Counted from the first letter of the stretch, positions 6,675-63,641 are shown. The stretch is 64,000 nucleotides of DNA from Verrucomicrobiota bacterium (GCA_013140495.1 JABFSR010000014.1:3880-67879), one strand, 5' to 3'. Translations and numbers: made by a program. The notes: generated by a model not told the origin, from the sequence alone.

Positions 6675-6717
6675 AAACTGGACCACTGAACCCCTTGTTG
6701 TGCGCGGGCTGGCGTGG

Positions 6718-22987: not shown

Positions 22988-26425
<3,438 letters not shown>

Positions 26426-41894: not shown

Positions 41895-42054
41895 ACCGCG
41901 CGCTCGTCACGAGCTTGCATGGTGCAGGGCCGCAAGAGCGGCGGGCTTCCGTCTGCGGCTCGGCAGCGGGCGTTGCGCTCCGGCTACGATTCGCTAGACG
42001 CTTCTCTCCGCTCTTCGCTCCACTTTCCCCGCTCGCCGACCGCCGACCGAAGCC

Positions 42055-43362
42055 TCAATTGGATTTTCCACGCGCCATTCGGCGCAGTTCGACTTGCCGT
42101 TCCAGCAATTCCCGTGTGTGCGCGACTTCCGCAGCCAGCACGGATTCTTTCGGCAGCGCCGTGAGATACTCACGGACGAGCAATTTACTTCCCAAACCTT
42201 CCATCGCGTAGCGGGCGAGCGCATCATCCTTGTCGGTACAAAGAATCAGACCCACGGGTGGATGTTCGTCGGGCTGCATCCAATGTTCGCGGGCATAGTT
42301 GCAGTAAAGATTCATCTGGCCCACATCGGCGTGGACGAGTCCGCCCAGCTTGAGGTCAATAATGACCAGACAACGCAGCCGCCGGTGGAAAAACAGCAAG
42401 TCCACGCGAAACCATTCGTTGCCGATTCGCAACCGCTTCTGCCGTCCAACGAAGGCAAACTCGTTGCCGAGTTCGAGCAGGAAGGTTTCAAGATGGCGAA
42501 TGAGCGCTTCTTCCAAATCACTTTCGGAGTATTCGTCTTTCAGATTGAGAAATTCGAGCACCAGCGGATCACGAATCTCCTCGTCAGCGGAGACGGCATC
42601 ACCCGGCTTGGGCTTCTCACCTTTTATCAGCATCGCGGTCTTGTTTTTCGACAACGCCGTGCGTTCGTAAAACTGCGAGTTGATTTGGCGGTTAAGCTGC
42701 CGCACCACCCATCCGCCCGCCAACGCTTCGCGCGCATAAAATTCGCGCGCATGCGCGTTCCGAACGCGCAACAGACGCACGTAATGTGTCCATGGCAAAG
42801 GGAAAGCGCGGGCGATCTGGCCGAGACGATCTAGTGCGCGTGAAAACCTAACCGAGGAACGCTCGCTGAATTGGCCGATCACTGATCGGCCAATTGGTGC
42901 GAGAGCGGAATCCGGGTTTTCAGATTGGCCAATCACTGATCGGCCAATTCCTGATTTTTCATCCGATGATTCAAGAATCAATGGCTTCGCAGTGTGAGCA
43001 TCTGGGAAAGTCTGATAAAACTGGCGCATCATCTTGACCTGGGAAAAACCAAATCCGCGCCCAAATCGTTCGGTGAGGTCCAGAGCGAATCGCCGCACCA
43101 GTTCTTCTCCATATTCCGCCCGCTTCTCCCCCGCCTGCTCGTGTTCCACAATCCGCCGCCCAACTTCCCAATATGTCGCCGTCATCAGTGAGTTGACGAC
43201 TCGCGCTGACGCACGCCGCGCTGCGTTCAAAAGTTCGACCACACCGGACAGCACATTGTCGTAGTCGGCGGGCTTGTGCTGAATCGTTTTGCCCGTCTTT
43301 GCTTTGTGGCTCGGTTTGCTCATAAGAATTTTCGGCGCTCGCTGATTCTTATCGGATTGCAA
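42055..43362 (-). CDS. YhcG-family (DUF1016) PDDEXK nuclease domain protein
   Basis: N-terminal domain LLNAARRASARVVNSLMTATYWEVGRRIVEHEQAGEKRAEYGEELVRRFALDLTERFGRGFGFSQVKMMRQFYQTF. C-terminal nuclease core LLELGNEFAFVGRQKRLRIGNEWFRVDLLFFHRRLRCLVIIDLKLG (D...D/E-x-K). Confidence 0.75.
   Translation of the reverse strand: MQSDKNQRAPKILMSKPSHKAKTGKTIQHKPADYDNVLSGVVELLNAARRASARVVNSLMTATYWEVGRRIVEHEQAGEKRAEYGEELVRRFALDLTERFGRGFGFSQVKMMRQFYQTFPDAHTAKPLILESSDEKSGIGRSVIGQSENPDSALAPIGRSVIGQFSERSSVRFSRALDRLGQIARAFPLPWTHYVRLLRVRNAHAREFYAREALAGGWVVRQLNRQINSQFYERTALSKNKTAMLIKGEKPKPGDAVSADEEIRDPLVLEFLNLKDEYSESDLEEALIRHLETFLLELGNEFAFVGRQKRLRIGNEWFRVDLLFFHRRLRCLVIIDLKLGGLVHADVGQMNLYCNYAREHWMQPDEHPPVGLILCTDKDDALARYAMEGLGSKLLVREYLTALPKESVLAAEVAHTRELLERQVELRRMARGKSN
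42869..42948. repeat. Two copies of a 26-27-bp near-palindrome inside the YhcG linker
   Basis: aattggccgatcactgatcggccaatt (42869-42895) and attggccaatcactgatcggccaatt (42923-42948). Each encodes IGRSVIGQ on the coding strand. Confidence 0.7.
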
Positions 43363-43424
43363 CCCACATGGCGAGCCATTCGGCTGGTCGCCGGGACAGC
43401 GATGAAAACCACTGTGGATTGTAT

Positions 43425-43505
43425 GGCGGCGGTGGAAAGTTCAAGGATACTACGGGTCGTGGCTTCCGTTCCTCCTTGAGCTTTCCGCCGCCGCCGGGTT
43501 TTTGC
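43425..43505 (+). other. Long imperfect hairpin followed by GGGTTTTTG in a 520-bp non-coding gap (terminator-like or structured RNA)
   Basis: ggcggcggtggaaagttcaagga (43425-43447) pairs with tccttgagctttccgccgccgcc (43473-43495). That is about 23 bp with 1 mismatch and 1 G-U. gggtttttg follows at 43496-43504. Confidence 0.4.
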
Positions 43506-43883
43506 CTCTAGGTTTTCATCGCGGGAAATTGTCGCTTGGCGACGGGATGTTTGCCGACCTTCGCAGAGGGGTTGCAGCCGCCGCTGAAACTTGTTAAAAA
43601 TGACCTCTGCAAACAAATGTGCAGCAAACGATGACATAACGACAAATCCATGACTTTTGCGTCGCAACGGCCTAGTCCCACGAGAAAACTGCGAATTTTT
43701 AGAGGACGAGAGAGACGCCGAAGCACGCGCCCAATCGGGCGCAGCTTGGCGTGTTTCTCCCATAGGCGCTTCGCAGTGCCTCTCGTGGGGGCGCGTTGAC
43801 TTCGCGCCCCTTCTGTTAATTGCCAGCGGTGAACAACTCTGGATTGGCTTTTCAGATCGGCAAGTGTTGAATGGCGACGGAAA

Positions 43884-44765
43884 GTGCGGATCGTAGTAGA
43901 AACGGATGTGCGAGACGTGAGCGCCACCATCCAAAAAACATTTTTTCGAAACGGACAGATCCGCGAGCGAGTGCCCGTGCGGGACGGTCGCAGGCATGGG
44001 ATTGTCCGCGTCTGGCACAAGAACGGCAAACGCGCCTCGGAAGAACCCTTTCGCAACGGCCTCTTGCACGGTAATTGCCGTCAGTGGAATGAATCGGGTC
44101 GCTTGCTCGGCAAATACAAAATGGTTCACGGCACGGGCATCCAGCGCGAGTGGCACGACAACGGACAACTTCAACTCGAAGTCTCGACCGTGCGCGGTGA
44201 GTTCACCGGACGAAACCGTATGTGGTTGAGCGATGGGGCGCTTCTCTCGGAACGATTCTACCTTCGCGGCCAGATTGTCAGCGCGGACGCATATCGGGAG
44301 GCGACGGCGAAGGATGAATCGTTGCCGAAAGTTCGAGGCAAGTCGGCCAAGCTGCCGGCCAAGAATGGAACGATGGAAAAACACATTCTGAATGTCTTTG
44401 TGCGTTCGCTCCTGGAGAAACCAAATCGCAGCGAGGTGCGAAAATGGCTCGCGAAGAAAGCCAACGACAAAACTTCGCGTTCGTTGGGACGATTCCGGCC
44501 CGCGCGCAATGCTGTAAAATGTCAGACTGGAAAGTTTGTTGAGGCACTTTACGAAGCAGGCGCGGTCGAAGTGATTGTGCCTGACATCTACTGGAGCAAA
44601 GCACGCGACCAGTTCGCCGATTGCTTGCTCGTTCAACTTCCCAAGAGCGCGGCAAGACGAAAGGCCGTTCGCAAAGTCTGCGTGCAACTGCGAAAGCGGA
44701 AGCTCGGCGCGGTGCAACCAGACAAGGACATGGGCGAAAGTCATTTGTTTCTGTCCCTTGCCTGA
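43884..44765 (+). CDS. MORN-variant / YwqK-family repeat protein with an uncharacterised C-terminal domain
   Basis: Repeats FRNGQIRERVPVRDGRRHGIVRVWHKNGKRASEEPFRNGLLHGNCRQWNESGRLLGKYKMVHGTGIQREWHDNGQL. GTG start at 43884 (upstream frame opens at 43833; start uncertain). The larger opposite-strand ORF 43320..44798 has no domain-like sequence. Confidence 0.6.
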   Translation: MRIVVETDVRDVSATIQKTFFRNGQIRERVPVRDGRRHGIVRVWHKNGKRASEEPFRNGLLHGNCRQWNESGRLLGKYKMVHGTGIQREWHDNGQLQLEVSTVRGEFTGRNRMWLSDGALLSERFYLRGQIVSADAYREATAKDESLPKVRGKSAKLPAKNGTMEKHILNVFVRSLLEKPNRSEVRKWLAKKANDKTSRSLGRFRPARNAVKCQTGKFVEALYEAGAVEVIVPDIYWSKARDQFADCLLVQLPKSAARRKAVRKVCVQLRKRKLGAVQPDKDMGESHLFLSLA

Positions 44766-44766
44766 T

Positions 44767-45720
44767 TCAGAAGACGGCGAGGCGATCGCGCGTCTCATCC
44801 ACCGCGAGAGCGCCGCAAGCCACCCGCGCTTCCAGCAGACACTCGCTCACCGCGTCACCGACCAGTCTTTCAACGGCATCGCGCATCGGGCGCGCGCCGA
44901 GCTTCGGATGAAATCCCTTTCGCACGAGAAACGGCAGCGCCGTCTTGTCCAGTTCGAGCTTGTGGCCGCGCGCGGCGAGAAACTCGATCTCGCGGGACAG
45001 AAACTTCTCCGCAATCTCCAACTGGTGTTCGTAGCTCAACCGATGGAACACGAGCTTTTCGTTGACGCGCGCGAAGATTTCCGGGCGCAAGGTCTGTTGC
45101 GCCCGCGTGAGGACATGGCGTTCCAGCGTGGCATCGTTCGAGTGCTGGAGGCTCATCAATTCGGCAGAGCCGATGTTTGACGTGAGCCAGATGTAGAAGC
45201 CGCTGAAGTCCAGCGTTTGTCCCGTCGCCACGGTGATCCGCGCCGCGTCCAGCAGTTGCAGCAGAATGTCCAGTACGCGCGGGTGTGCTTTTTCTGCTTC
45301 GTCAAAAAGCAGCGACCCTTGTGACGCACGTTCACGCACGCCGCCCAAGTAGCCGACTTCTCCGAGCCGCGCACCGAGCAACAAGCCAAGCGCCTCTTGA
45401 TTCTGGAATTCTGACATGTCGAAGCGAAACAGTTGTCCCGCACCGAAAATCTGTGTCGTCAGCACCACGACCGTTTCTGTTTTTCCGACGCCGGTTGGTC
45501 CGAGCAGCAGAAAACTCCCGCGCGGACGACCGGGCTTCGTTAGGCCGAGTTCGCCACGTTTTACCGAGGAGATGATTCGCGGCAGCGCGTGGGACTGGCC
45601 GCGGATTTCGCGCGGCAGCAGGGAGGTCAGTTCGTGGAGTTTGGTGAGCTTCGCCGGGTCTGTTGTTTTGTTCATTCCTGATTTGTAGCCCGGACTGAGC
45701 GTGAATGTTGTGTAGGACAT
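44767..45720 (-). CDS. Stand-alone AAA+ ATPase resembling the ClpA/ClpB D2 module
   Basis: Walker A LLGPTGVGKT. Walker B/sensor block LLFDEAEKAHPRVLDILLQLLDAARITVATGQTLDFSGFYIWLTSNIG. D2-small domain GFHPKLGARPMRDAVERLV. No N-domain, D1 or middle domain. A likelier start is MNKTTDP at 45675. Confidence 0.8.
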   Translation of the reverse strand: MSYTTFTLSPGYKSGMNKTTDPAKLTKLHELTSLLPREIRGQSHALPRIISSVKRGELGLTKPGRPRGSFLLLGPTGVGKTETVVVLTTQIFGAGQLFRFDMSEFQNQEALGLLLGARLGEVGYLGGVRERASQGSLLFDEAEKAHPRVLDILLQLLDAARITVATGQTLDFSGFYIWLTSNIGSAELMSLQHSNDATLERHVLTRAQQTLRPEIFARVNEKLVFHRLSYEHQLEIAEKFLSREIEFLAARGHKLELDKTALPFLVRKGFHPKLGARPMRDAVERLVGDAVSECLLEARVACGALAVDETRDRLAVF

Positions 45721-45804: not shown

Positions 45805-46158
45805 ATGAAGTTCATCAAGCACATCAAACCCAAAGTTCGTTCGCGGCTGCCTTCGCTCCTCGTGGCCGCTGCTTTCCTCACCCTCAACGTTATGCCGGCC
45901 TTCGCGCAGGCATTCAACTCCACCGAGCTCAAGACCGGCATCAGCAACAGCCTCGCCGTAATCATGATGTTCGGGTTCGTGCTCGGCATTTCTTGTGTCA
46001 TCTACGGCGGTTTCGCCATCCGGCGCGGCGACGTGGACCAGGGCAAGATGTCCATCATCGGCGGCGCGATTATAGCCGCTGCTCCGGCGGTCATCTTTGC
46101 GTTTTACAAAATCTTTGGCCTCGACGCGAACAGCAGCGTCGGCGTCGGCAATTTCTGA
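45805..46158 (+). CDS. T4SS pilin-like protein (TrbC/VirB2 type)
   Basis: 117 aa. Signal peptide ...LVAAAFLTLNVMPAFAQA, then two hydrophobic helices (NSLAVIMMFGFVLGISCVIYGGFAI; IIGGAIIAAAPAVIFAFYKIF). First gene of the operon. Confidence 0.6.
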   Translation: MKFIKHIKPKVRSRLPSLLVAAAFLTLNVMPAFAQAFNSTELKTGISNSLAVIMMFGFVLGISCVIYGGFAIRRGDVDQGKMSIIGGAIIAAAPAVIFAFYKIFGLDANSSVGVGNF

Positions 46159-46197
46159 TCTCGCCACACAACCCGCCACCAGCCGCCCTGAGCCGCC

Positions 46198-46545
46198 ATG
46201 AAAACAGACCTCCGCCTCACCGACACCAACGCCGCCTCCGACTCCAAAGGCCGGACGTGGGGATTGGAGGGAGGTTTGTTCTGGTGGCTCGTGGGCGGCA
46301 TCGGCGCGGGCATCACGGTGTTCTTCGTGCTCCTCGTCATGTTGAAGTCCTCTTTCCTGACTTCCTGCATTGTCGCCCTGCTGCCCGTGGCCCTCTGTCT
46401 CGCCTACATCTTCGGCCTGCGGCAGGGGAAGCCGCCTGGATACGACTGCGATTGTTTCGAGCATTGGATTTCCGGCAGCGGGTTCGCTCCAGAAGTCCAG
46501 AACACGCGAACTTTCCGTCACCCGCTCTCGGAGGAAATGCCATGA
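46198..46545 (+). CDS. VirB3/TrbD-like small membrane protein
   Basis: 115 aa with two TMs (LFWWLVGGIGAGITVFFVLLVML; LTSCIVALLPVALCLAYIFGL). Position between the pilin and VirB4. Confidence 0.5.
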   Translation: MKTDLRLTDTNAASDSKGRTWGLEGGLFWWLVGGIGAGITVFFVLLVMLKSSFLTSCIVALLPVALCLAYIFGLRQGKPPGYDCDCFEHWISGSGFAPEVQNTRTFRHPLSEEMP

Positions 46546-46844
46546 CTGCTGGCGAATCCAATGCCGTTGACTTGAACCGTCACGCGCTCCGTGCCCGGCT
46601 GCAAACCGCCGACACCGCCTTGTGCACCGGCCTGAATCAACCGTGTGGTGAACCGATTGTTCGCGCGCACATCGAACGCGCGCTGGCGCACATCCGCGAG
46701 GCCGAGACTGCGCTACAGAACCTTGCCCGCGCCCGCACCGTTGAGGAACTCGCCGACCAACTTGCCCACGTTGACGAGATGCGCGAGGAACTCCGCTCGC
46801 AAGAGGTTGCCATCACCAACGCCCTTTCATCCATTCGCATCTGA
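46542..46844 (+). CDS. Hypothetical 100-aa helical protein inserted between the VirB3-like and VirB4-like genes
   Basis: The 3' part of track ORF 45705..46844. ATG 46542 overlaps the upstream TGA (ATGA). MTAGESNAVDLNRHALRARLQTADTALC...ELADQLAHVDEMREELRSQEVAITNALSSIRI. No TM. Ends 3 nt before the VirB4 ATG. Confidence 0.5.
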   Translation: MTAGESNAVDLNRHALRARLQTADTALCTGLNQPCGEPIVRAHIERALAHIREAETALQNLARARTVEELADQLAHVDEMREELRSQEVAITNALSSIRI

Positions 46845-46847
46845 CCT

Positions 46848-49589
46848 ATGCTTGAGCGCGCTCCCAACGGTTTTTTTGTTCGCGGCATGATGGTGTTCAA
46901 CCATCTCCGGCGCGGCGGTTACGTGTCCAAGGGTTTCATTTTTGAAGCGCCCGACCTCACGAACAGCCCCGCCGCCGACCTGAATGACTTCCAAGACCAA
47001 CTCTGTCTCCTGCTCGCCTCGCTCCACGAGCATCAGCGCCTGCAAGTGCAATACTTCTGCGATTCCGATTACAAGGGGGAGTTGCTGCGCTATCAGCAGG
47101 AGACAGAAAAGTTTCCCAACGTCTGGACAAAACGCGCCCGCAACGAGCGGTTCTCGCGCTACTGGCAGGCGATGTCGGAACGCAAACTCCGCCGTCAGCG
47201 CGTGATCTTCTACATTTCGCGTTCGTTGGAGAACTTTCCCAAAGCGTTCCAGACCGCCGCCGCCCGGCGCGAATACTACAACACACTGCTCGACCAACTC
47301 GAAACCGAGTTCGAGCATATTCATCGGTTGTTGTTGGAGATTTTCGGTTCGGGCGGGGCGCGTATTCTGCCGATGTCCGACCTCGACCACTTCCGGCACT
47401 ACAAGCGGTTTCTCAACCCGTCACTCAACGACCGCTTTGATTTCGACCCGGCAGACGGCTTCGCGCCTGAACTTTCGATCCAAGAGAATTGCTGGCACAG
47501 CGAGGGCAACGGGCAGAGCGATTCGGGGTTCTTTCTCGACGGGCACTACCACTCGCTGATTGTGCTCACCCGCTGGCCGCGCACGACCTATCCAGGAATT
47601 ATTCAGCGGCTCACCAACTTGCGCCTGCTGGACTACACCATCACGGTGAATGTTGATCCGCTGCCAATTTCGCAAGAGATCAGCAAGGAGGAGAAGGAAC
47701 ACGACCGCGTGGCCGGCGACTACGCCAGCGAAAAGAAAATATCCCTGCTCACCGTGATGGAGAAGAAGCAGAAGAAAATCCACGCGCTGATGCAGGGCCA
47801 GACCATCCCGTTTCACGCGATGCTCACCATCCGTGTTTGGGACAAGACCCGCGACGGCCTCAACGCGAAGTCTGGCGCAATCAAGAACGCCATCAACTCG
47901 ATGAATGCGGCGCAGTATTTCGAGAGCAACCTGCCCAGCACGTCAAAGAACATTTTCTATCAGACCTGGCCGGGCTGGACGTGGGGACGCTACGAACATC
48001 GGAAACTCTATTCGGAGCATCGTTTCCTCGCAGACATGCTGCCGGTCACAAGCACTTTCACCGGACATCTTGCCGGTGCAGAAGCAATTTACGACGGCCC
48101 GCAAAACAACCTTGTGGGCATCGAGACATTCTCCGGATCGGTGGACAACAAATCGCCGCAGCACGCCGTGTTGCTCGGCATGTCCGGCGCGGGAAAATCT
48201 GTGACCGTCTGCGACCTCCTCACACAGACCGAAGGATATTTCGGTTACACCGTCATCATCGAGGAAGGTTTGAGCTACGGGATTTACACCGCAACCGTCG
48301 AGGAAGGCGCGCGGCCAATCATCATCCACCCGGATGGCGACCTGACCATCAATTACCTCGACACAAAGGGACTGCCGCTGACGCCCGACCATCTCTCCGC
48401 CGCGACCGCGCTGGTCGCGCGGATGATTGGAACTTCGTCGCAGGAGGACAAGCAGATGCTCCGGCAGGCGCAAATCGCCAAATACCTGAACCTGCTTTAC
48501 GAGGATGCGTTCCAAGATTGGCAGAAAAAACGCCACGACCAGTTACTCGACATCGCTCGGCACGCACTCGCGCTCCAGCAATTCCGCGCCGAACGGATGC
48601 CGCCGGGCGCGACCACACTCGAAACCTTTGCGGACTTCCGCGACTGGAAGGCGAGCCACCCCGACGAGGCGGAGAGCTATCAGCGCCAGTTCGACGAAGC
48701 CGCCACGCTGAAGTTTCTCAAAGAACCAAAGACCAGCAAGGAGGTCCGCAACCTCGCCTTTGCTCACTTCACGCCGGACGAGTTCCCGACGCATCGGATG
48801 TTGCAGGAGTTGATGATGCTTGATCCGATGGGCGGGGAGCGTGACCAAATCATGGAGATCGCGACACTCATCCTGCCGTGGTGTCGCGATGGAAACCACG
48901 GTTGCCTGTTCGACGGCACGAGCAACCTCTCGCTCACCGGCAAAATTGCCCACTTCGAGTTGGGCTACATCCCGGAGTCAGCCAAAGAGTTGAAAGCAGC
49001 GGCAGGCTTTCTCATCACCAACCACGCGCGCAAGCACATCATGACGTTGCCGCGCGCGATTCGGAAGCGGAACGTGTATGAGGAAGTCGCGCGTTTCCTC
49101 GACATCCCAGGCGGACAGGAAATTGTTCAGGAAAGCTACGCCCAACTTCGGAAGTTTAATTGCTGGAACATCTCAATCGTTCAGCAATACGCGCGCTTCA
49201 AACAGTCGCGCATTCGCTCGGCCGTGTTTGGCAACTCACGCCAGTTTTTCATCATGCGGCAGAACGACCGCGCCGACCTCGACGACATGGGCAAAGACAT
49301 CGCGCTGCCCGAAGTGACGCAGCACGCGATCATGAACTACCCATTGCCCGACCATCAAACTGGCCAGAAGTATTCACCGTTCACCTACCTGCACACCGAC
49401 GCCACGCGGAATATGTGCGGCACGGTCCACAACGTCTCATCGCCGGAGATGCTTTATTGCTCCAGTTCGAGCGGGGAACATTTTGACCGCCGCGCTCGCG
49501 AGCTTCGCCAGAGCAAGAGCATCGTCGAGGGCATCATTCACCACGCCAATCGCCGGGAGGACGAACAACACGAATTCACCAAGAAATAA
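46848..49589 (+). CDS. virB4: VirB4/TrbE-family T4SS ATPase
   Basis: 913 aa. Walker A VLLGMSGAGKSVTV. Walker-B-like RNVYEEVARFLD. The overall size and N-terminal region are typical of CagE/TrbE/VirB4. Confidence 0.85.
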   Translation: MLERAPNGFFVRGMMVFNHLRRGGYVSKGFIFEAPDLTNSPAADLNDFQDQLCLLLASLHEHQRLQVQYFCDSDYKGELLRYQQETEKFPNVWTKRARNERFSRYWQAMSERKLRRQRVIFYISRSLENFPKAFQTAAARREYYNTLLDQLETEFEHIHRLLLEIFGSGGARILPMSDLDHFRHYKRFLNPSLNDRFDFDPADGFAPELSIQENCWHSEGNGQSDSGFFLDGHYHSLIVLTRWPRTTYPGIIQRLTNLRLLDYTITVNVDPLPISQEISKEEKEHDRVAGDYASEKKISLLTVMEKKQKKIHALMQGQTIPFHAMLTIRVWDKTRDGLNAKSGAIKNAINSMNAAQYFESNLPSTSKNIFYQTWPGWTWGRYEHRKLYSEHRFLADMLPVTSTFTGHLAGAEAIYDGPQNNLVGIETFSGSVDNKSPQHAVLLGMSGAGKSVTVCDLLTQTEGYFGYTVIIEEGLSYGIYTATVEEGARPIIIHPDGDLTINYLDTKGLPLTPDHLSAATALVARMIGTSSQEDKQMLRQAQIAKYLNLLYEDAFQDWQKKRHDQLLDIARHALALQQFRAERMPPGATTLETFADFRDWKASHPDEAESYQRQFDEAATLKFLKEPKTSKEVRNLAFAHFTPDEFPTHRMLQELMMLDPMGGERDQIMEIATLILPWCRDGNHGCLFDGTSNLSLTGKIAHFELGYIPESAKELKAAAGFLITNHARKHIMTLPRAIRKRNVYEEVARFLDIPGGQEIVQESYAQLRKFNCWNISIVQQYARFKQSRIRSAVFGNSRQFFIMRQNDRADLDDMGKDIALPEVTQHAIMNYPLPDHQTGQKYSPFTYLHTDATRNMCGTVHNVSSPEMLYCSSSSGEHFDRRARELRQSKSIVEGIIHHANRREDEQHEFTKK

Positions 49590-49594
49590 CAGTT

Positions 49595-50020
49595 ATGAAA
49601 AACACCATCGCCTCACTCACATTCAAAACGCTCTTTTGCGTTCTCGTCGTCGGCTTGTTTGCGGGTTGCGCCGCGACGCGCCCAATCGCCGACACCGCGC
49701 TCGGCGCGGGCGGCGCGTATCTCGGCCACGAACTTTCCGGCGGCGATCCGCTCGCCACCGCCGCTGGCGCGGCGGGTGGAGTTATCCTAAGTGAGGGACT
49801 CCACTTCGCCGCGAAGAAGCAATCCGAGAAGGCTTACGCCGCCGGTTACGACAAGGGAAAGAGCGACGGCGTGAAGCAGCAGTATTGGCTCTACGTGTCC
49901 ATGCAGAAGCAACGCAACCAGGTCGCCAACGTTCGTCTTTACCCCGTGAAATTGCCCGAACAGCGAATTGACGGGGTAACGTTCAAACCATCAACAAAAT
50001 TCCTCCGCATTGAGGAATAG
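49595..50020 (+). CDS. Lipoprotein with a glycine-zipper segment (TrbK/VirB7-position protein)
   Basis: Lipobox VVGLFAGC. Glycine zipper GAGGAYLGHELSGGDPLATAAGAAGGVIL. Confidence 0.55.
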   Translation: MKNTIASLTFKTLFCVLVVGLFAGCAATRPIADTALGAGGAYLGHELSGGDPLATAAGAAGGVILSEGLHFAAKKQSEKAYAAGYDKGKSDGVKQQYWLYVSMQKQRNQVANVRLYPVKLPEQRIDGVTFKPSTKFLRIEE

Positions 50021-50045
50021 CAGCCACGAAGAAAGGAAACACACC

Positions 50046-50846
50046 ATGAAAAAGTTAATCGCACTCGCACTCGTTGCCGTCGGAATCAGTCTGCCGGCTC
50101 GCGCCCAATGGGTCGTCTATGACCCGGTAAACAACGCACAGCAGATTCTCGCTGCCGCCCAAGACATCGCCAAGTTCATCGAGATGATCAACAACCAGGT
50201 GCAGCAAATCCAGACGCTCACCGACCAGCTCAACGAGTTCAAACACTACGAAAGTCTGTTCGGCGATCCTAAAGCGGTTCTGCTCTCGACGGTCCAACCG
50301 CTCGTCAACGACCTTCGCAAAACGGAAGTCGGCCAGACCCTCACGGCCCTCGAAAGCACGGTCAACGCCGGCCAAGCCATGCTCTACGACGCGAATGGCT
50401 TGTTTCACAGCATCGGCACGACTTTCGACACACCCAACGGCGTGACGGTGACGCGACGGCAACCGACCTACCTACCCGTCGCCGCCGTGCAAAAGACGAC
50501 GGACAACTATTTGTCCGTCTCCACTGATGCGACCTCGCGTCGCATCGCGCTGAAAGCACAAATCGCCACGACCACTGATGCGCTCAAAGCGGCGCAGACC
50601 GACGCGGAGGTTCAAAAGTTGACGGGCGTTCTCATCGGCCTGTCGTCTGCGCTCAACAATACGGACTACGAAATCAATCAGGCCACGACTGCCGCCGTCG
50701 TGCAGGACATCGCCAATCGCAACGACGCGCAGCGGCAGATTGAAGCGAAGAAGGAACAGCAGCACGCCGAGTTCACCGAGGCGATGGAGAAGTATGGGCA
50801 GAAGTTCCGCCTGATGAACGCGCCCACGGCGTTCCCCACTCCTTAG
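50046..50846 (+). CDS. TrbJ/VirB5-like T4SS protein
   Basis: Trimmed to MKKLIALALVAVGISLPARAQ. The mature N-terminus WVVYDPVNNAQQILAAAQDIAKFIEMINNQVQQIQTLTDQLNEFK matches the TrbJ pattern (VFDPSN..QN..Q...Q..Q). Confidence 0.7.
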   Translation: MKKLIALALVAVGISLPARAQWVVYDPVNNAQQILAAAQDIAKFIEMINNQVQQIQTLTDQLNEFKHYESLFGDPKAVLLSTVQPLVNDLRKTEVGQTLTALESTVNAGQAMLYDANGLFHSIGTTFDTPNGVTVTRRQPTYLPVAAVQKTTDNYLSVSTDATSRRIALKAQIATTTDALKAAQTDAEVQKLTGVLIGLSSALNNTDYEINQATTAAVVQDIANRNDAQRQIEAKKEQQHAEFTEAMEKYGQKFRLMNAPTAFPTP

Positions 50847-50881
50847 CTAACACGCGACGCACCCTCAAATCGTCCCGACGT

Positions 50882-51949
50882 ATGGCCTCCTTTGAAAGTC
50901 TCTTTCCGACGTTCCTGCAAAAGTGTGTGGAGTTGCACGAGTTGCTGCGCATCGTCGCTTTCATGTTGTTCATCGTCGGGACGATCATGCTCGTCGTCCA
51001 CGGATTCACCGGCAAGACGCTCATGCTCCACATGGTCCGGCTCTTTGTGCTGACGGCGTTGCTTGTGATGCTGCCGCAGTGGGGCAACCAAGTTCAGCAG
51101 CTTGTGCAAACCTCGATTCTCGACGGCCTCGGCATTGATCCAAGCAACGTGCAAGACCAATACAACAACCTCCTCGTCGTCAAGCGCGACTCCGGCAGCG
51201 ACCACTCATGGTGGGACATCCTGGGAGATTTAAGCGGCTTCACCGTCGAGGTTCTCATCTCCAGCGTGCTCTGGCTGGTTGGCGAGTTCGCGTCGTTGCT
51301 GGTGTTCTGGGCCTACATCATCCAGAAGTTCATTTTGTTTTCGAGCTACGCGCTCTCGCCGCTCCTCATCGGATTCATGGCGATTCGTCCCCTCCGATCC
51401 GTGGGCAGTCGTTACCTGATGAACATCGTCGGCGTGCTTGTCTGGCCGCTCGGTTGGGCCGTCGCCGCGCTCATCACCCAAGGCATCCTCGATTTCATGA
51501 CCGACCCCGCGTTCAAATACATTGACCCCACCGCGACGATTTATTCCCTGCAAGCCACGGTTGGTGTTGTCGTGGTCGCGTTCTGGATTGTGTTCAGCAC
51601 CATCGCCGCTCCACTCGTCATTCAGAAAGTTCTGAACCACGGCACACTCGCGGGCAGCCAGCTTTTGGCCGGAGCAGCCAGCAGCTTTTTCCAAACCGCC
51701 GCCACCACCGCAGGCGCTGCCGCCGTCGCGTCCACCACTGGCGTTCCATTCGCCACGGTGGGCGCGGCGGGAATGGCTGCGGTCTTAAGCACGCTCTCGA
51801 CCGCAGGCGGACATGGCAGCGCCGGCGCAATCATCATCGCTGGCTCTGGTTTGCCGCCGCGCTCCGCTCGCGGTCGTCCGGGCGACGACATCACCGGCGA
51901 CAAATCCGTCCGCGAACTTATCTCCAAAGGCAAAGGCAACTACTACTGA
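50882..51949 (+). CDS. TrbL/VirB6-like polytopic membrane protein
   Basis: 355 aa. At least 5 hydrophobic helices followed by an Ala/Gly-rich C-terminal tail. Position after TrbJ matches the trb operon order. Confidence 0.55.
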   Translation: MASFESLFPTFLQKCVELHELLRIVAFMLFIVGTIMLVVHGFTGKTLMLHMVRLFVLTALLVMLPQWGNQVQQLVQTSILDGLGIDPSNVQDQYNNLLVVKRDSGSDHSWWDILGDLSGFTVEVLISSVLWLVGEFASLLVFWAYIIQKFILFSSYALSPLLIGFMAIRPLRSVGSRYLMNIVGVLVWPLGWAVAALITQGILDFMTDPAFKYIDPTATIYSLQATVGVVVVAFWIVFSTIAAPLVIQKVLNHGTLAGSQLLAGAASSFFQTAATTAGAAAVASTTGVPFATVGAAGMAAVLSTLSTAGGHGSAGAIIIAGSGLPPRSARGRPGDDITGDKSVRELISKGKGNYY

Positions 51950-51954
51950 CATTT

Positions 51955-52623
51955 ATGGAAACGACCGAACTCAATCCCCGCCAAACGCCGACTGGCAACG
52001 GCTCGACTCCTCGCGTCGCCCGCAAGCGCTTCGACCCGACGCAACTTTTCGCGCAGCGCGACCGTCTGCCGTGGTTCTGGTTCTTCGTAGCCGTCGTTGT
52101 CACGGTGTTGGCGGCGCTGGACCGCTACCACATCATCGGCCAGTTCAAGCAGCGCGAGCGCGTTGTCATCATTGACCCAGCGCAGACTTACTACATCAGT
52201 CCCTTGCTTCAATTTCAGGAGGCGAAAGATTTGCACGTCCAACAGGCGGAACTCGCGGCGCTCACGTTTCTTGCACGCAACTCCAAGGATTTCGACCACC
52301 CGGATTTATTGCGGCAGATGTTCCTGAAATCGGCGCTGCAAAAAGCGCAGGATCATCGCACGCGCGAGGCGGTTGAGTTTCGCGCGAAGCAACTTCACCA
52401 GAAGCCGGAGATTGCGAAGATAGACATTCTCGCGACCCGAGATAATGAGGTGCTCGCCACCGTGTCTGGCCAGGTCATTCGCACCGGCATTTTTCAGGAG
52501 AAGGCTTTCAACGAGGCGTTCAATTTCAAATTGAGTCTGCGCCTGATCCGCAACCCCAACATGGCTGCCAACGGTCGTTTCCCCACCGCTGTCGGCGACT
52601 TCAAATATGAAATCACCAATTAG
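51955..52623 (+). CDS. VirB8/TrbF-like bitopic protein
   Basis: Cytoplasmic N-terminus, a single TM (LPWFWFFVAVVVTVLAAL), and a periplasmic domain of about 160 aa. Call rests on topology and position. Confidence 0.5.
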   Translation: METTELNPRQTPTGNGSTPRVARKRFDPTQLFAQRDRLPWFWFFVAVVVTVLAALDRYHIIGQFKQRERVVIIDPAQTYYISPLLQFQEAKDLHVQQAELAALTFLARNSKDFDHPDLLRQMFLKSALQKAQDHRTREAVEFRAKQLHQKPEIAKIDILATRDNEVLATVSGQVIRTGIFQEKAFNEAFNFKLSLRLIRNPNMAANGRFPTAVGDFKYEITN

Positions 52624-53512
52624 TCTCCTCATCCTGCTGGCGGCAACCGTCGCGTTCGCTGGTTCACCAGAAGCCATTCAGCGTGTCACGCTCGACGAGC
52701 GCGTTGTCGTGACCGTGCCCGTCGCCACAAACCACGTCACGACTATCAGCTTCCCCGGCCCGATTGCTGCGATTGATGCCGTGGGCGTGACCGCTGACGG
52801 AAAGACGCCGGGGCAATTCCAACTCGCACACACGAAGGGTTCGTCATTCGTGTCCGTCCGCGCCCTGGCACGCAAGGCGGCAACGAACTTGAACATCCGA
52901 TGGAACAAGCGCACCTACGTTTTTGAAGTGGTCGAAAGCGACACGCCCGTTCTGGCGCTCAATCTCGAAGATCGAGCAGCGGCGGAAACGGTTCAACCCG
53001 CGCCGCTCGTCACGCCAACGCGATTGCTCGCATTGCTGGACAAGGCCAAATCGTTTCAACTCCTAAAGCAACAGCACTCGGAAGCCGTCGCCGATGCCGA
53101 AGCGAGGACGTTCGGGGATGAGCCTCAAGTGACCAACCTCAATGACTACGAAATCCGCATCGAAGAAGTGTTTCGTTTCAATGCCGAGGACACGATGGTT
53201 TTCCACGTCACGCTGCGGAACAAATCCGATAACGAGATTCGCTATCTGCCGGAGAGTTTCTGTCTGCGCGTCGGCAACCGGCTCTACTACCAGTCCATCA
53301 GTGACGCTCCCGGAGTGCTACCGCCGTGCGCCGCCAGCACGGTTTATTTCGGCATCACCGGCACGCCGGACGGAGGGCGGAATGAGTTGTCGTTGAAAAA
53401 TGAATTCACGGTGCTCGTCACGCGAACTTCCCCGCCTCCTCCCGTTGCCGTCAATACCAACGCCCCCGTTGTTCCGGTGAAACCAATCCGTCCTCCAAAA
53501 GGCCAGCCATGA
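52607..53512 (+). CDS. VirB9/TrbG-like secretin-core protein
   Basis: Signal MKSPISLLILLAATVAFAGS. Segment NHVTTISFPGPIAAIDAVG...NLNIRWNKRTYVFEVVES resembles the VirB9/TraK-like beta domain. Pro-rich C-terminus. 17-nt overlap with the upstream gene. Confidence 0.55.
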   Translation: MKSPISLLILLAATVAFAGSPEAIQRVTLDERVVVTVPVATNHVTTISFPGPIAAIDAVGVTADGKTPGQFQLAHTKGSSFVSVRALARKAATNLNIRWNKRTYVFEVVESDTPVLALNLEDRAAAETVQPAPLVTPTRLLALLDKAKSFQLLKQQHSEAVADAEARTFGDEPQVTNLNDYEIRIEEVFRFNAEDTMVFHVTLRNKSDNEIRYLPESFCLRVGNRLYYQSISDAPGVLPPCAASTVYFGITGTPDGGRNELSLKNEFTVLVTRTSPPPPVAVNTNAPVVPVKPIRPPKGQP

Positions 53513-54594
53513 AACCGCGCGATTTCCTCAATTTCTTCAAGACCAAGAGCGGCAAGTTGGTTTTGTTCGTGGCGATTTTCGGCGGCGGTCTGTTGGTGTT
53601 TAGTGTGCTCCGTGGCAAGTCCGGCAGCGACGATGACATGGATGTGCGCGTCTCTGGCTCGCAGACAAACATGACGGACAAACCGCAGGTTGTGCAAACT
53701 GTCGTGCGACCGATGCAGCCGTTTTACCCGCCGACACCGAAGCCAGAGCAATTGCCGATTTCACAAACGAACGCCGCTCCAAGAGTTCTCCCTGAACACC
53801 GCCCGCAAGACACCGCGCCCGCGCCGCTCCCGCCCATCAGTCTGTTTGCCGACAGCACCGCTGGGGTTGCCGAGCCAAAGAGCGTGAGTTCCATCTATGC
53901 GCCGTTCGGTCGCCTCATCTCGTGCGAAACCGTCGTCACGGTTGATTCGGCATCCATTCAGACGCCCATCGTCGGCCTCGTCACCGAGAATGTGTATCAC
54001 GCCGGTAAGTTGGTGATTCCCGCTGGCACGGAGGTTCACGGCACGGCGCAGAAAGACCGCCTCCGTGAACGCATTTCCAGCGGCAACAGTTGGACGCTCG
54101 TTTGGCAGACCGGCGAGGAACTCCATTTGAAGGCGCTCGCACTTGACCGCGAGTTTTCCGGCGACCAGGAAGGCTGGGGTATAACGGACGGCAGCGCCGG
54201 ACTGCGCGGGCGCATCATAAAGTCCGACAACCTGGCGGACATAAAACTTTTCGCCGCAACCTTCCTTTCCGGCGCAGCGGAGGCGCTGACCGAAAAGCAG
54301 CAAACTGTCTTTGGCCCGATCACTAGCCCTTCGCTGGCCAATGCGCCGTTTGAAGGCGCGCAAAAGGTTCTCTCGATTTACGCACAGCGGATTTACGAGG
54401 CAATTCAGAAAGACGGTTTTTACGTCCGTGTGCCGAGCGGAAAACAGTTTTACCTCTACGTCGTTCAAACAATTGACCGTGCCGATGCTGGCATCGGCGG
54501 TTCGGCGAAGGTATTCGCGGAAGAAGACAAGTCCGCGCCGGCACTCCCGCCAAGCTTTACCACGACACCATCAACACCCCCGTTCCAGCCATGA
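53509..54594 (+). CDS. VirB10/TrbI-like protein
   Basis: N-terminal TM (LVLFVAIFGGGLLVF), a Pro-rich linker (PMQPFYPPTPKPEQLP...PAPLPP), and a C-terminal TrbI-like barrel (IYAPFGRLISCETVVTVDSASIQTPIVGLVTENVYHAGKLVIPAGTEVHG). ATGA overlap at 53509. Confidence 0.7.
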   Translation: MKPRDFLNFFKTKSGKLVLFVAIFGGGLLVFSVLRGKSGSDDDMDVRVSGSQTNMTDKPQVVQTVVRPMQPFYPPTPKPEQLPISQTNAAPRVLPEHRPQDTAPAPLPPISLFADSTAGVAEPKSVSSIYAPFGRLISCETVVTVDSASIQTPIVGLVTENVYHAGKLVIPAGTEVHGTAQKDRLRERISSGNSWTLVWQTGEELHLKALALDREFSGDQEGWGITDGSAGLRGRIIKSDNLADIKLFAATFLSGAAEALTEKQQTVFGPITSPSLANAPFEGAQKVLSIYAQRIYEAIQKDGFYVRVPSGKQFYLYVVQTIDRADAGIGGSAKVFAEEDKSAPALPPSFTTTPSTPPFQP

Positions 54595-55178
54595 AATACC
54601 TCGCACTCATCCCGCTCCTGTTCGTCGCTTCGTGCGCTTCGCGCCCGCAACTCGCCGTTCGTCCCGCGCCGCCCTCTGCCGTCGAGCCGGTCGAGGCCGT
54701 GCGGTATTCGGAAGTGGTCCGCGCCTACTATATCGGGCGCTTCGTTGATCCGAACCATCCCGAAACGATGCACGAGCAGCACCCGGTTTATCGCATCGAA
54801 TCTACCGCGCGATGGAACTTGCACCCAGGTTCAGCGCGCACGGCCAATCTGTTGAACCCACCGCCCGACGCCGCGTTCGCACCACCGCCATCGAGTGATG
54901 CCGTGATTGCCGAGATGAATCGGCAGCGCGAAGCGACGGCGCGCGTGATGTCGGAAGCCGTGCGGCTTTCTCGTTCTTACGAGGAGTTGCAGAACATTTT
55001 CTCTCAAATGAAAAGCGTTGCCCGGAACAGCGCGCTTCTCGGCGCACGGGTCGCCACCACCGAGCAGCGAGTCACGGAATTTGGGAAGGAGCTTGAAAAG
55101 CTTTCAACCACGCCGGCGGGGCAAACGAACGACGTGCCCGCGTTCGTTCCTGATCCGCCGGACGCGCCAAAACCATGA
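54591..55178 (+). CDS. Lipoprotein of unknown function, coupled to the VirB10-like gene
   Basis: Lipobox LLFVASC. The C-terminal half looks like a coiled coil. ATGA overlap at 54591. Confidence 0.55.
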   Translation: MKYLALIPLLFVASCASRPQLAVRPAPPSAVEPVEAVRYSEVVRAYYIGRFVDPNHPETMHEQHPVYRIESTARWNLHPGSARTANLLNPPPDAAFAPPPSSDAVIAEMNRQREATARVMSEAVRLSRSYEELQNIFSQMKSVARNSALLGARVATTEQRVTEFGKELEKLSTTPAGQTNDVPAFVPDPPDAPKP

Positions 55179-55268
55179 ACACACTTTGCCGGGACGGGGC
55201 GGTTTTACCGCCTCGCTTTGGCGAACACGGCAAATGCCGCGCAACAAGAAACAACAAAATGAACCGTT

Positions 55269-55676
55269 ATGAGTAAAATAAAGCCATCCGCGCCACCGAG
55301 CGCCAGCGGCAGTGCCGCTCCCGCAGACGCGCCCACTTTTCGGAGCAACCCGGAAGTGGATGCCAAGATTGATGCCTATATCAAAGAGAACCCGAAATAT
55401 TGGAACTACGTCCAAGCCATGCCCCGCGAGCGTCTCGAACGCTCCGTCGTCCTGAACGAAGTGCGCGAACTTGACCGCCAGCAACGCATCCGCGAAGGCG
55501 TCCTGAAGCAGATCAACCGCAACCCAGAGTTGAAACGGGCGTACGAACTTTTGGTTAAGGACCTGCCCGAAGATCAGAAAGAAACCGTCATTGCGCAGAT
55601 CGGACGGGTCGCCAGACGGGCCGTTACCCGCGTGCAAGGTCAGCAGCAACAAAAGCAGGAAGGTGTCGGTGTTTGA
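55269..55676 (+). CDS. Hypothetical protein (135 aa), last gene of the T4SS operon
   Basis: MSKIKPSAPPSASGSAAPADAPTFRSNPEVDAKIDAYIKENPKYWNYVQAMPRERLERS... No TM. A terminator follows. Confidence 0.5.
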   Translation: MSKIKPSAPPSASGSAAPADAPTFRSNPEVDAKIDAYIKENPKYWNYVQAMPRERLERSVVLNEVRELDRQQRIREGVLKQINRNPELKRAYELLVKDLPEDQKETVIAQIGRVARRAVTRVQGQQQQKQEGVGV

Positions 55677-55708
55677 AGACTGCTTTTTAGATACACTTGA
55701 ATCGGACC

Positions 55709-55746
55709 CGGAAGCTTGCCGCGATAGCAGGCTTCCGTGTTTTTCT
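55709..55746 (+). terminator. Rho-independent terminator closing the T4SS operon
   Basis: cggaagcttgc (55709-55719) pairs with gcaggcttccg (55727-55737) with 1 mismatch. tgtttttct follows. Confidence 0.7.
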
Positions 55747-55817: not shown

Positions 55818-56591
55818 TTAAAGTTTTTGCCGGATTATTGCGCGCACCCGGTCGTAATCAGGGCGGTCTGCGGTTGTGACCGGCATGGGATTACTTTGGG
55901 CTATCTTCGGCACCACCCAGCGCCAGTGCTCCGCATGGCTGTCGGCAAACGATAAAATGGCTCCTTGGACATGCCGGTTCGAGGGCATGTCCCACCATTG
56001 ATTAGTGTTGCCGTAATTCACCGTCGGCATTCCAAAATGGGTGTCCAGCATCGTATCTTCGTTCTCGTCAATGAATACCAAACATTTTGACGGGTTTGGT
56101 TCATTGATCTGGGACATTTTACTAAAATTCGGAATATGGGTCGCCAGCCAGGCGGTGGGATCGCCGTTGACCGACTGGCTCAAGTTGTAACTTCGGTTGC
56201 GCGGTTGTGAAAGCTGGATGCCGCTTAAGCTGACCACCGTCGAGACGTCGGCGGGACAATGATACAAGGCCGTCGAACGGTTGTAGCCGAAGAGTAGGCC
56301 GGATTCAATGACCGCCGTGTTCGTCTCCAAAATGCCTGTGCCCTGGCACCAAGAAGGCCCGGGTGTGCCGCCGGCGATGTTATCGTTAGGCACCAGCAGA
56401 TCGTTGTAATCGCCGGCATAAAGATGCCAGCAGATGGAAAGTTGGCGGAGGTTGTTCAAGCAGGCGATGGTCTGGGTGCGGCTTTTCGACTTGGACAGTG
56501 CGGGCAGCAGCAGCGCCGCTAAAATTGCGATGACGGCGATCACCACCAGCAATTCCACCAAGGTGAACCCGTATTTTTTCCCATGGTTCAT
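55818..56591 (-). CDS. Prepilin-type N-terminal cleavage/methylation domain protein (DUF1559-like)
   Basis: KKYGFTLVELLVVIAVIAILAALLLPALSKSKSRTQTIACLNNLRQLS. C-terminal region HVQGAILSFADSH (H-X9-DS variant). Confidence 0.8.
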   Translation of the reverse strand: MNHGKKYGFTLVELLVVIAVIAILAALLLPALSKSKSRTQTIACLNNLRQLSICWHLYAGDYNDLLVPNDNIAGGTPGPSWCQGTGILETNTAVIESGLLFGYNRSTALYHCPADVSTVVSLSGIQLSQPRNRSYNLSQSVNGDPTAWLATHIPNFSKMSQINEPNPSKCLVFIDENEDTMLDTHFGMPTVNYGNTNQWWDMPSNRHVQGAILSFADSHAEHWRWVVPKIAQSNPMPVTTADRPDYDRVRAIIRQKL

Positions 56592-56880
56592 GACTCCTGA
56601 TTGTCTGCTTGAAAATGCGCTGGAACCAGCCCGCCAGCCGCAGGCTCAAAACTCCGAGACTTCAGTAAAGATTAGCCCGGTTTTTCACATCATTCAATCA
56701 TGCGGAATCCAGCCAAAAATTGGATCATCAAAAAAAAGTCTGCGCCGTTGATACACATTCAACTTGAATCTCGCATTATCAGATGATATGAAAAGAATTA
56801 TAGGAGGAAAAATTGGGCCAAAGCGGAGATTCAGTTTATTTCAAGGAGTTTTCGGTCCTAAAAGTGCCAGGGGTTGCCTT

Positions 56881-59448: not shown

Positions 59449-59491
59449 AAATTCGCGGAACGTTTTTAGAAAAACGCGATCTGAACGTTTT

Positions 59492-63287: not shown

Positions 63288-63387
63288 GGTTGTCCGTAAA
63301 AACTTTCAAAAAAAATCATGGCCCTCCGCCGTAACCAGCTACCATCAGATCAGCAGCTAGACCTGTTCTCAACCCGAAGGCCAAACA

Positions 63388-63639: not shown

Positions 63640-63641
63640 CC

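Follow-up and report, generated by a model that had tools for sequence, protein, structure and literature searches.

A stretch of 64,000 nt from a Verrucomicrobiota bacterium (JABFSR010000014.1:3880-67879), referred to here as the window, carries between positions 45805 and 55746 an operon whose genes resemble those of a type IV secretion system (T4SS). The part of the window from 41.8 to 64 kb is probably a portion of an integrated conjugative element that belongs to a large family specific to the Verrucomicrobiota, with 45805-55676 representing its mating-pair-formation (MPF) operon. The operon encodes both a VirB4 ATPase and a VirB10/TrbI protein, by which a T4SS is recognised, together with a marginal VirB2/TrbC pilin. 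An earlier note on this DNA, made from the sequence alone, had asked how the cluster is distributed: a scan of one genome per species returns at least 276 related loci in genomes of Verrucomicrobiota species, mostly Limisphaerales. In all of the best 80 of these, which were fetched and analysed (loci are labelled L001, L002 and so on), the same order is found of a MORN_2-repeat gene on the + strand, an AAA+ ATPase gene on the - strand and a twelve-gene operon. Because this gene order recurs in 80 loci, the operon is not a chance assembly.

A Trb-like operon of twelve genes

The operon is made up of twelve open reading frames (ORFs), all on the + strand and tightly packed, and is followed by a terminator. 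Scores are in bits and are compared with the curated cut-off of the model concerned.

45805-46158, +, VirB2/TrbC-type pilin, 117 aa; signal-like segment and two transmembrane (TM) segments; Pfam TrbC 28.9 against a cut-off of 27.9, a marginal pass
46198-46545, +, small membrane protein at the VirB3/TrbD position, 115 aa; placed by a TM segment and its position before VirB4
46542-46844, +, fast-evolving helical protein, 100 aa; no family match
46848-49589, +, VirB4-family ATPase, 913 aa; Walker A motif GMSGAGKS at residue 444
49595-50020, +, Gly-zipper lipoprotein, 141 aa; lipobox at residue 22 and a weak Gly-zipper match
50046-50846, +, TrbJ/VirB5-like protein with a signal peptide; likely start at ATG 50046, the longest ORF running from TTG 50010
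50882-51949, +, polytopic membrane protein at the VirB6/TrbL position, 355 aa; six TM segments
51955-52623, +, bitopic protein at the VirB8 position, 222 aa; one N-terminal TM segment
52607-53512, +, VirB9/CagX-like protein, 301 aa; signal peptide; Pfam CagX 30.0, below the cut-off of 34.2
53509-54594, +, VirB10/TrbI protein, 361 aa; N-terminal TM segment; Pfam TrbI 60 against a cut-off of 35
54591-55178, +, lipoprotein, 195 aa; lipobox at residue 12; no family match, a TrbH/VirB7 role being suggested by position
55269-55676, +, cytoplasmic helical protein, 135 aa; found in 54 loci; no family match
55709-55746, +, intrinsic terminator; 11-bp stem at 55709-55737, then a T-run

The intergenic gaps are, in order, 39, -4, 3, 5, an overlap or 25 (depending on the TrbJ start), 35, 5, -17, -4, -4 and 90 nt. 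Overlaps of the ATGA type at 46542, 53509 and 54591, and one of 17 nt at 52607, can be read in the sequence, as the earlier note had described them, and the terminator is likewise present, although the gene count, given there as eleven while twelve were named, is twelve. The order of the genes mirrors trbC-D-E-J-(K)-L-F-G-(H)-I, so that the proposal of a Trb-like T4SS operon in the Verrucomicrobiota is borne out. All twelve ORFs are uninterrupted, and the AAA+ and MORN_2 genes are also full length, with neither frameshifts nor stops.

The individual proteins are recognised with very different degrees of ease. In the Pfam profile comparison TrbI passes and TrbC does so marginally, VirB4, TrbJ and VirB9 are matched weakly, and the proteins at the VirB3, VirB6 and VirB8 positions are not matched. 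VirB4, TrbJ and VirB10 had previously been considered strong calls, a rating that is justified for VirB10 but too generous for VirB4 and TrbJ, both of which fall below curated cut-offs. The only Pfam match of VirB4 is to P-loop_TraG (23.6 bits). Its best curated match is a partial one to the NCBIfam TraC-F model, with 87 bits on the C-terminal 240 aa (cut-off 567), followed by VirB4_CagE with 53.7 bits (cut-off 643) and TrbE PRK13873 with 25.7 bits (cut-off 1020); the partial matches to VirB4, TraC and CD1110 models have E values of 1e-12 to 6e-25. Used alone, the window VirB4 matches no solved VirB4 structure at E <= 1; a superfamily profile built from 45 members matches both 4AG5, the VirB4 of Thermoanaerobacter (E = 8e-16), and TrwK (E = 2.5e-11). 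The TrbJ-like protein matches DUF4141 with 28.3 bits and, weakly and below cut-off, the T4SS, TrbJ (PRK13874) and TrbJ_Ti models, where the TrbJ and DUF4141 matches are confined to the N-terminus. For the VirB6-position protein, hhalign against the TrbL of Mesorhizobium gives E = 0.0019 over 200 columns at a probability of only 14%. The AlphaFold model of the VirB8-position protein has helices followed by a 4-strand sheet, and its top Foldseek match is the NTF2-like conjugation protein 3ub1 (E = 0.07), which carries little weight given a low-confidence model (pLDDT 52) derived from a shallow alignment (>=80% identity).

Comparison with four distant loci (L086, L088, L173 and L174) helps to separate core from accessory genes. 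By blastp, with gene order kept, these contain homologues of the AAA+, VirB3, 141-aa lipoprotein, TrbJ, TrbL, VirB8, VirB9, VirB10 and 195-aa lipoprotein positions: VirB9-like proteins are present in all four, VirB3-position proteins in L086, L088 and L173, the 141-aa lipoprotein in L086, L088 and L174, and the 195-aa lipoprotein, after TrbI, in L088, L173 and L174. The 100-aa, 135-aa and MORN_2 proteins are not detected in these four loci by the same search. The genes that had been set aside in the earlier note as unassigned extras are thus of two kinds, in that the 141- and 195-aa lipoproteins form part of a conserved superfamily core whereas the 100- and 135-aa proteins are confined to the Limisphaerales family.

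In relatives the operon also takes insertions at three fixed intergenic points, with inserts that have no Pfam match. Inserts of 2-6 kb lie between the genes for the 141-aa lipoprotein and TrbJ in L005, L018, L020 and L060, and an insert of ~1 kb lies between the VirB4 and lipoprotein genes in L046-L062, with a 285-aa ORF in five loci. An ORF of ~140 aa is found between the VirB3-position and 100-aa genes in about 19 loci.

The family and its ClpB-like ATPase

Relatives of the window VirB4 at 80-94% identity number in the hundreds, and every one is labelled either hypothetical or TrbE. The 80 fetched loci, in which VirB4 is 79-96% identical, come almost entirely from metagenome-assembled genomes of Verrucomicrobiota, Verrucomicrobiia or Limisphaerales; twelve genomes have 2-3 copies, and in one case two copies share a contig. 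Median identities to the window are highest for VirB4 (89%), the AAA+ protein (80%), the pilin (80%) and the VirB8- and VirB3-position proteins (74% and 73%), intermediate for the 141-aa lipoprotein (69%), the 135-aa protein (67%), the TrbL-position protein (66%), VirB10 (65%) and VirB9 (62%), and lowest for the fast-evolving TrbJ (53%), the 195-aa lipoprotein (44%) and the 100-aa protein (39%). The ratio of non-synonymous to synonymous substitution (dN/dS), computed against five relatives, is 0.03-0.3 for the operon genes (0.03-0.06 for VirB4), with the exception of the 100-aa gene (0.27-0.75). Across the copies the genes evolve under purifying selection.

Synonymous divergence (dS) is 0.5-1.6 for the T4SS genes, greater than the 0.17-0.41 of shared neighbour and cargo genes, which rules out vertical inheritance at a fixed site. 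Moreover, the nearest relative shifts along the operon; taken with the contrast in dS, this indicates that the clusters are mosaic and recombining. In L001-L003 the VirB4 protein is 95-96% identical to that of the window at a dS of 0.7-1.0.

Beyond the immediate family, a search of 50%-identity representatives finds 406 VirB4 relatives below E = 1e-30. The next VirB4 clade, at 46% identity, is from the Opitutae, and the more distant lineages that have the AAA+ gene beside the operon are represented by L088 (37% VirB4 identity), L174 (33%) and L173 (29%). Among 72,556 plasmids a full-length VirB4 relative is found only on those of Opitutaceae TAV5 (32%) and Termitidicoccus mucosus (25%), the other plasmid VirB4, TrbE and TraC proteins having 20-29% identity over part of their length.

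To which class of T4SS do these systems belong? For MPF-T, VirB4 scores far below the cut-offs of the TrbE/VirB4 models, the placement being by model scores, and is ~20% identical to plasmid TrbE, and no TrbB/VirB11 is found. For MPF-F, none of the operon proteins matches an F-type Tra family and the TraC-F match is only partial. The 45 superfamily members behave in the same way, with partial matches, among the top-listed models, to TraC-F, VirB4_CagE and CD1110, the best of which has E = 8e-35 (TraC-F, cut-off 567 bits). As judged from sequence comparison, the system is best placed in an unclassified clade and filed under neither MPF-T nor MPF-F. The divergent lineage that had been suspected is very divergent indeed, and its VirB4 fits no curated VirB4 subfamily.

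A further gene lies divergently upstream of the pilin gene.

44767-45720, -, single-ring ClpB-NBD2-like AAA+ ATPase, 317 aa; Pfam AAA_2 98 bits and ClpB_D2-small 50 bits

The protein aligns end to end with the second nucleotide-binding domain (NBD2) and the D2-small domain of ClpB, residues 558-853 (4d2q, E = 3e-49). It has no ClpB N-domain, NBD1 or middle domain and is not a two-ring disaggregase of the ClpB/Hsp100 type. Across 77 homologues the Walker A and B, sensor-1, Arg-finger and sensor-2 motifs are conserved, and the pore-loop motif GYVG reads GExG[Y/F], the canonical Tyr being replaced by Glu. The likeness to the NBD2 of ClpB/Hsp100 therefore covers the AAA_2 and D2-small domains and the catalytic motifs, whereas the protein described here differs in its single ring, its altered pore loop and its linkage to a T4SS. 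The gene is found in 67 of the 80 loci at ~80% identity, adjoins the T4SS in L081, L082, L086, L088, L173 and L174, being the last gene of the operon in L086, and is found elsewhere on the TAV5 plasmid. Every lineage that was looked at has it, including the one whose VirB4 is only 29% identical. Thus the divergent ClpB-D2-like gene noticed earlier at the position of trbB is confirmed, and it is a conserved gene that characterises the superfamily as a whole. The absence of VirB11/TrbB also extends beyond the window, as no T2SE/VirB11 family occurs among the ORFs of the window, nor is one listed in the gene tables for L081, L082, L086, L088, L173 and L174.

What might a Clp-type ATPase contribute to a T4SS? 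The substrates of these systems must be unfolded before transfer, and the type VI secretion system, with its ClpV, illustrates that a secretion machine can have a Clp-type ATPase of its own. The AAA+ ATPase is presumably an extra cytoplasmic motor of the T4SS, which may replace VirB11 or may unfold or remodel the relaxase or the pilin before transfer. Literature searches find no Clp-type ATPase described as a T4SS component. A T4SS that combines a ClpB-like AAA+ protein with the absence of VirB11 offers a testable mechanism, in which an unfoldase dedicated to the task would be novel.

Coupling protein, relaxase and the flanks of the element

A Pfam scan of essentially all large ORFs of the window finds no type IV coupling protein (T4CP), relaxase or VirB1/lytic transglycosylase family, and tblastn of the window with T4CP and relaxase sequences taken from the family gives only noise (E >= 0.66; T4CP alone, E >= 0.85). 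This copy accordingly shows neither the T4CP nor the relaxase of a self-transmissible conjugative system within a window that is cut inside the element. Both are found in relatives. A T4CP-seeded scan of metagenomes yields at least 330 loci, and in the 80 that were fetched there is a fixed unit of relaxase (-), ParA-like gene and T4CP (+), paired wherever the contig reaches. In five loci (L089, L090, L144, L151 and L158) the MORN/AAA/T4SS module follows this unit by 0.4-6 kb; it is not seen downstream of the T4CP in the remaining metagenome loci, where the sequence extends up to ~9.5 kb. The distance from T4CP to module, across variable cargo, ranges from 0.4 to >9.5 kb. In L089, for instance, the relaxase has TrwC (275 bits) joined to an AAA_30 helicase, and the T4CP is of the TrwB type (TrwB_AAD_bind 47.5, T4SS-DNA_transf 28.6 and TraG-D_C 24 bits, all above cut-off). 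L021 and L027, which belong to the Limisphaerales family, have T4CP and relaxase homologues upstream of the module, L086 from the Opitutae combines a TrwC relaxase-helicase and a T4CP with mercury-resistance cargo and an equivalent T4SS order, and L173 has a T4CP and an integrase.

The apparent lack of T4CP and relaxase is a trait of this copy or of the window, not of the family. The earlier note was correct in that VirB11, T4CP, relaxase and VirB1 are all missing from the window, but the lack of T4CP and relaxase does not extend to complete relatives, which have both. It had also been envisaged that the operon might prove an ordinary module, with its VirB4 nested within MPF-T and with trbB, a T4CP and a relaxase close by; a T4CP and a relaxase do exist in the family, but there is no MPF-T nesting and no trbB.

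To the left of the AAA+ gene the element has three further features.

41809-42053, +, structured non-coding element of 245 nt with sharp edges; marks the left limit of homology
42055-43362, -, YhcG/DUF1016 PDDEXK nuclease, a cargo gene; YhcG_C 184 bits, DUF1016_N 129 bits
43884-44765, +, MORN_2-repeat protein, 293 aa, a conserved accessory of the Limisphaerales family; MORN_2 47.9 bits

A 492-aa ORF on the opposite strand (43320-44798, -), at first taken as a variable partner of the AAA+ gene, was rejected as an antisense shadow of the MORN_2 gene on the basis of six-frame conservation: in 61 loci the MORN frame reaches a median of 333 bits at 57% identity, whereas the antisense ORF has 148 bits and 36%. 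The YhcG gene is found at the equivalent position in 12 related loci. In L021 the T4CP gene (L021:4135-5088) is cut short after ~317 codons, and is followed by 70 nt left over from the 245-nt element and then by YhcG (5445-6886). The YhcG/MORN junction in L021 is the same as that in the window, which suggests how a T4CP arm can be lost.

The blastn search places 58 copies of this conserved 245-nt element in 42 related loci. Every copy points the same way as the T4CP and T4SS genes, and nearly every one falls within the variable cargo that separates the T4CP from the MORN/AAA genes (for example L003:2607-2851 and 3349-3596; L138:1677-1922 and 8574-8820; L151:1648-1890 and 2309-2552). In some loci it directly follows the T4CP stop codon and in others 2-3 copies bracket cargo genes, with its right end directly against the 3' end of a cargo gene on the minus strand, which in the window is YhcG. 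It is non-coding, as its indels are not multiples of three. It forms a long hairpin with compensatory changes and matches no Rfam family. A role as an origin of transfer is unlikely because the element is absent from the relaxase-bearing L027, is multi-copy and sits after the T4CP, not at the relaxase. It may serve as a site for cargo insertion or for recombination, may act as an insulator or a terminator, or may be a non-coding RNA.

At 41809 homology to related elements sets in abruptly, and the genes to the left of it are unrelated ones for sugar utilisation. A 231-aa ORF at 38531-39226 (-), ~2.6 kb from the boundary, retains only two C-terminal Ig-like domains of a beta-mannosidase; it is seemingly a truncated gene fragment and hints at a past rearrangement. 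The Pfam content of the window is otherwise one of glycoside hydrolases, galactose genes, sugar transporters, PATR giant proteins, PEP-CTERM proteins and an AraC regulator.

On the right, the region after the terminator reads as follows.

55818-62778, four-gene insertion by Pfam content: N_methyl/DUF1559 protein (-), TSP3-repeat protein, Ser/Thr kinase-TPR protein and extracytoplasmic function (ECF) sigma factor
63063-63287, +, XRE-type helix-turn-helix (HTH) protein, 74 aa; HTH_19 23.5 bits and HTH_3 18.4 bits, both weak
63318-64000, +, N-terminus of an N12-class adenine methylase/SNF2-like helicase, 227 codons, running off the window

The segment 55818-62778 is an insertion because in relatives the HTH and methylase-helicase genes directly follow the gene for the 135-aa protein; the same four genes are inserted in L003, L012 and L019. 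HTH homologues are found at the equivalent position, before the methylase-helicase gene, in 33 loci, and the methylase-helicase gene lies downstream of the module in 43. The start present in the window matches by tblastn with 51% identity over residues 7-233 (E = 1e-54) of proteins that are ~1600-1750 aa long in relatives. The finding of these two genes at 63.0-64.0 kb led to the abandonment of the view of the cluster as an isolated island with chromosome on its right; because of them, the element must continue beyond the right end of the window. The compact, self-contained cluster of the earlier note therefore gives way to a larger element that includes the MORN_2, AAA+ and HTH genes and the methylase-helicase start, and that exits the window on the right.

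Across the related loci the flanks hold variable cargo of the mobile-element kind, which includes HTH genes, RHS and Tle1-like toxins, large surface proteins, restriction-modification, toxin-antitoxin and AbiEii systems, IS66 and other insertion sequences, a P-type metal ATPase, TPMT, integrases and metal resistance. The kinase-TPR and ECF sigma pair of the window (59492-62778) has a counterpart (61% and 49% identity) just upstream of the module at L002:4468-6409, and a protein kinase gene (L088:21986-22706) lies ~1.6 kb downstream of the AAA+ gene in L088; these kinase and sigma genes may together act as a regulatory module in such elements. In L082, at 23543-24899 and ~8.5 kb beyond the methylase-helicase gene, an HTH_17 gene is accompanied by one that weakly matches canonical TrbL; the two may represent a second, different conjugative element next door.

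Interpretation and comparison with known systems

If the element is conjugative, its parts can be assigned likely roles by analogy. The VirB2-like pilin, the VirB3-like protein and VirB4 would build and energise a pilus and an inner-membrane platform, with the polytopic VirB6-position and bitopic VirB8-position proteins providing the inner-membrane channel. The VirB9-like protein, VirB10 and the 141- and 195-aa lipoproteins would form an envelope-spanning core, and the fast-evolving TrbJ/VirB5-like protein may be an exposed pilus or contact component. In complete members the TrwC-type relaxase-helicase and the TrwB-type T4CP would process DNA and feed it to the channel. Since the present copy lacks this arm at its usual place, it either relies for both proteins on genes outside the window or on a sister copy, or cannot move DNA by itself. 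What the sequences show is membership of the family, gene content, linkage and selection; the part played by each protein, the AAA+ function and the activity of this copy are inferred.

Several observations weigh against the interpretation as a conjugative element. No profile match passes for the VirB3-position protein, whose identity rests on topology and position, as does that of the VirB6-position protein, for which there is no Pfam match and a profile search of solved structures is empty; the VirB8-position protein has no sequence match to VirB8/TrbF, and the same structural search is again empty. No T4CP or relaxase is present in the 44 kb upstream, where complete relatives carry them, and most T4SS loci have no T4CP within ~8 kb upstream. 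Of the 168 related loci compared with the left flank, none has a homologue of any of its genes, and the ends of the element show no integrase, no convincing direct (att) repeats and no tRNA. Finally, no member of the family has been shown to conjugate, and full-text literature searches found neither a paper on the family nor a description of T4SSs in the Verrucomicrobiota.

A broader form of the conjugative interpretation can be put forward tentatively, with rather less than even confidence. According to this proposal the family constitutes a Verrucomicrobiota-wide MPF class that is missed by typing schemes, with a conserved core of VirB2, VirB3 and VirB4, two lipoproteins and TrbJ-, VirB6-, VirB8-, VirB9- and VirB10-like parts, and with an obligatory AAA+ ATPase that stands in for VirB11 or acts as a relaxase unfoldase. 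Many chromosomal copies, this one among them, would then remain intact with no T4CP or relaxase of their own, either working in trans or put to a task other than conjugation.

The best-surviving alternative, though an unlikely one, is that the module, in this copy and perhaps in many others, has been orphaned by loss of the T4CP and relaxase and exapted for contact-dependent toxin delivery, for adhesion or pilus display, or for DNA uptake or release, the AAA+ protein taking over substrate handling. Such a change of use would fit with twelve uninterrupted ORFs under low dN/dS and nothing of the T4CP or relaxase in the 44 kb upstream, with the presence of several copies per genome, and with the junction between the 135-aa gene and cargo that is common to L003, L012 and L019. 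RHS and Tle1-like toxin genes in some left arms adjoin the conserved MORN_2 gene, a repeat type typical of YwqK-type immunity proteins. However, no conserved effector is found and RHS genes are not among the conserved partners. That dN/dS is low between divergent copies is no proof that this copy is used, and the missing genes may lie beyond a window that is cut inside the element, especially as the distance from T4CP to module is variable and often >9.5 kb and T4CP genes of this type are abundant in the metagenome loci. A decaying remnant of an integrated conjugative element, without current function, is less probable still. The left arm is cut off precisely where the 245-nt element lies, the T4CP of L021 is cut short beside a YhcG gene, the mannosidase fragment lies nearby and the right arm has received the four-gene insertion, all of which might be expected of decay, but the twelve operon genes, the AAA+ gene and the MORN_2 gene are full length, the translational-coupling overlaps are preserved and VirB4 retains its protein identity to L001-L003 despite their high dS. 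The weakest alternative, favoured in the earlier note, is of a T4SS lineage that intrinsically lacks T4CP, relaxase and VirB11; none of the three is in the window and VirB11 is in no related gene table examined, but T4CP and TrwC are linked to the module in L021, L027, L086, L089, L090, L144, L151, L158 and the TAV5 plasmid, with a T4CP also in L173, so that this reading is refuted for T4CP and relaxase and holds only for VirB11.

The significance of a conjugative family of this kind lies in where it is found. Conjugation in the Verrucomicrobiota is essentially unstudied. The family, with hundreds of 90%-identity protein clusters, is common in soil, peat and freshwater metagenomes, and annotation pipelines label its proteins as hypothetical. 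In an abundant phylum, a major conjugative system is therefore probably being overlooked by surveys of gene flow. The family could also supply conjugation-based genetic tools for Verrucomicrobia, for which the plasmids of the cultured Opitutaceae TAV5 and Termitidicoccus mucosus are starting points.

Four known systems provide useful comparisons. The DNA-uptake system ComB of Helicobacter pylori is a T4SS without a T4CP and, like the window copy, has equivalents of VirB2-4 and VirB6-10 with neither VirB11 nor VirD4; the family described here differs in that it has a T4CP and a relaxase, and no competence-related context is seen. With the Trb systems (MPF-T) of IncP and Ti plasmids, as in Mesorhizobium (NZ_CP045495), the operon has in common the order pilin, small membrane protein, VirB4, TrbJ, TrbL, bitopic protein, VirB9-like protein and TrbI, together with interspersed small lipoproteins and tight coupling. 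It departs from them in having no TrbB/VirB11, in its ClpB-NBD2-like AAA+ gene, in TrbF, TrbD and TrbL counterparts that are unrecognisable by sequence, and in lipoproteins that occupy other slots. The Trw system of R388, in which a VirB-type T4SS works with the MOBF relaxase TrwC and the coupling protein TrwB, differs from the window copy, which has neither TrwC nor TrwB and no TrwD/VirB11, but complete members of the family likewise have a TrwC relaxase with a fused AAA_30 helicase and a TrwB-type T4CP, and it is TrwK of this system that the superfamily VirB4 profile matches. A parallel in a cultured organism is the 99.8-kb plasmid CP007054 of the verrucomicrobium TAV5. This is a plasmid and not an integrated element, its T4SS genes are in two clusters and all are annotated as hypothetical, and PLSDB/MOB-suite types it as 'mobilizable' and MOBF, its transfer machinery having escaped recognition. 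It nonetheless encodes homologues not only of VirB4, TrbL, VirB8, VirB9 and VirB10 but also of the AAA+ ATPase, the methylase-helicase, the T4CP and the TrwC relaxase domain.

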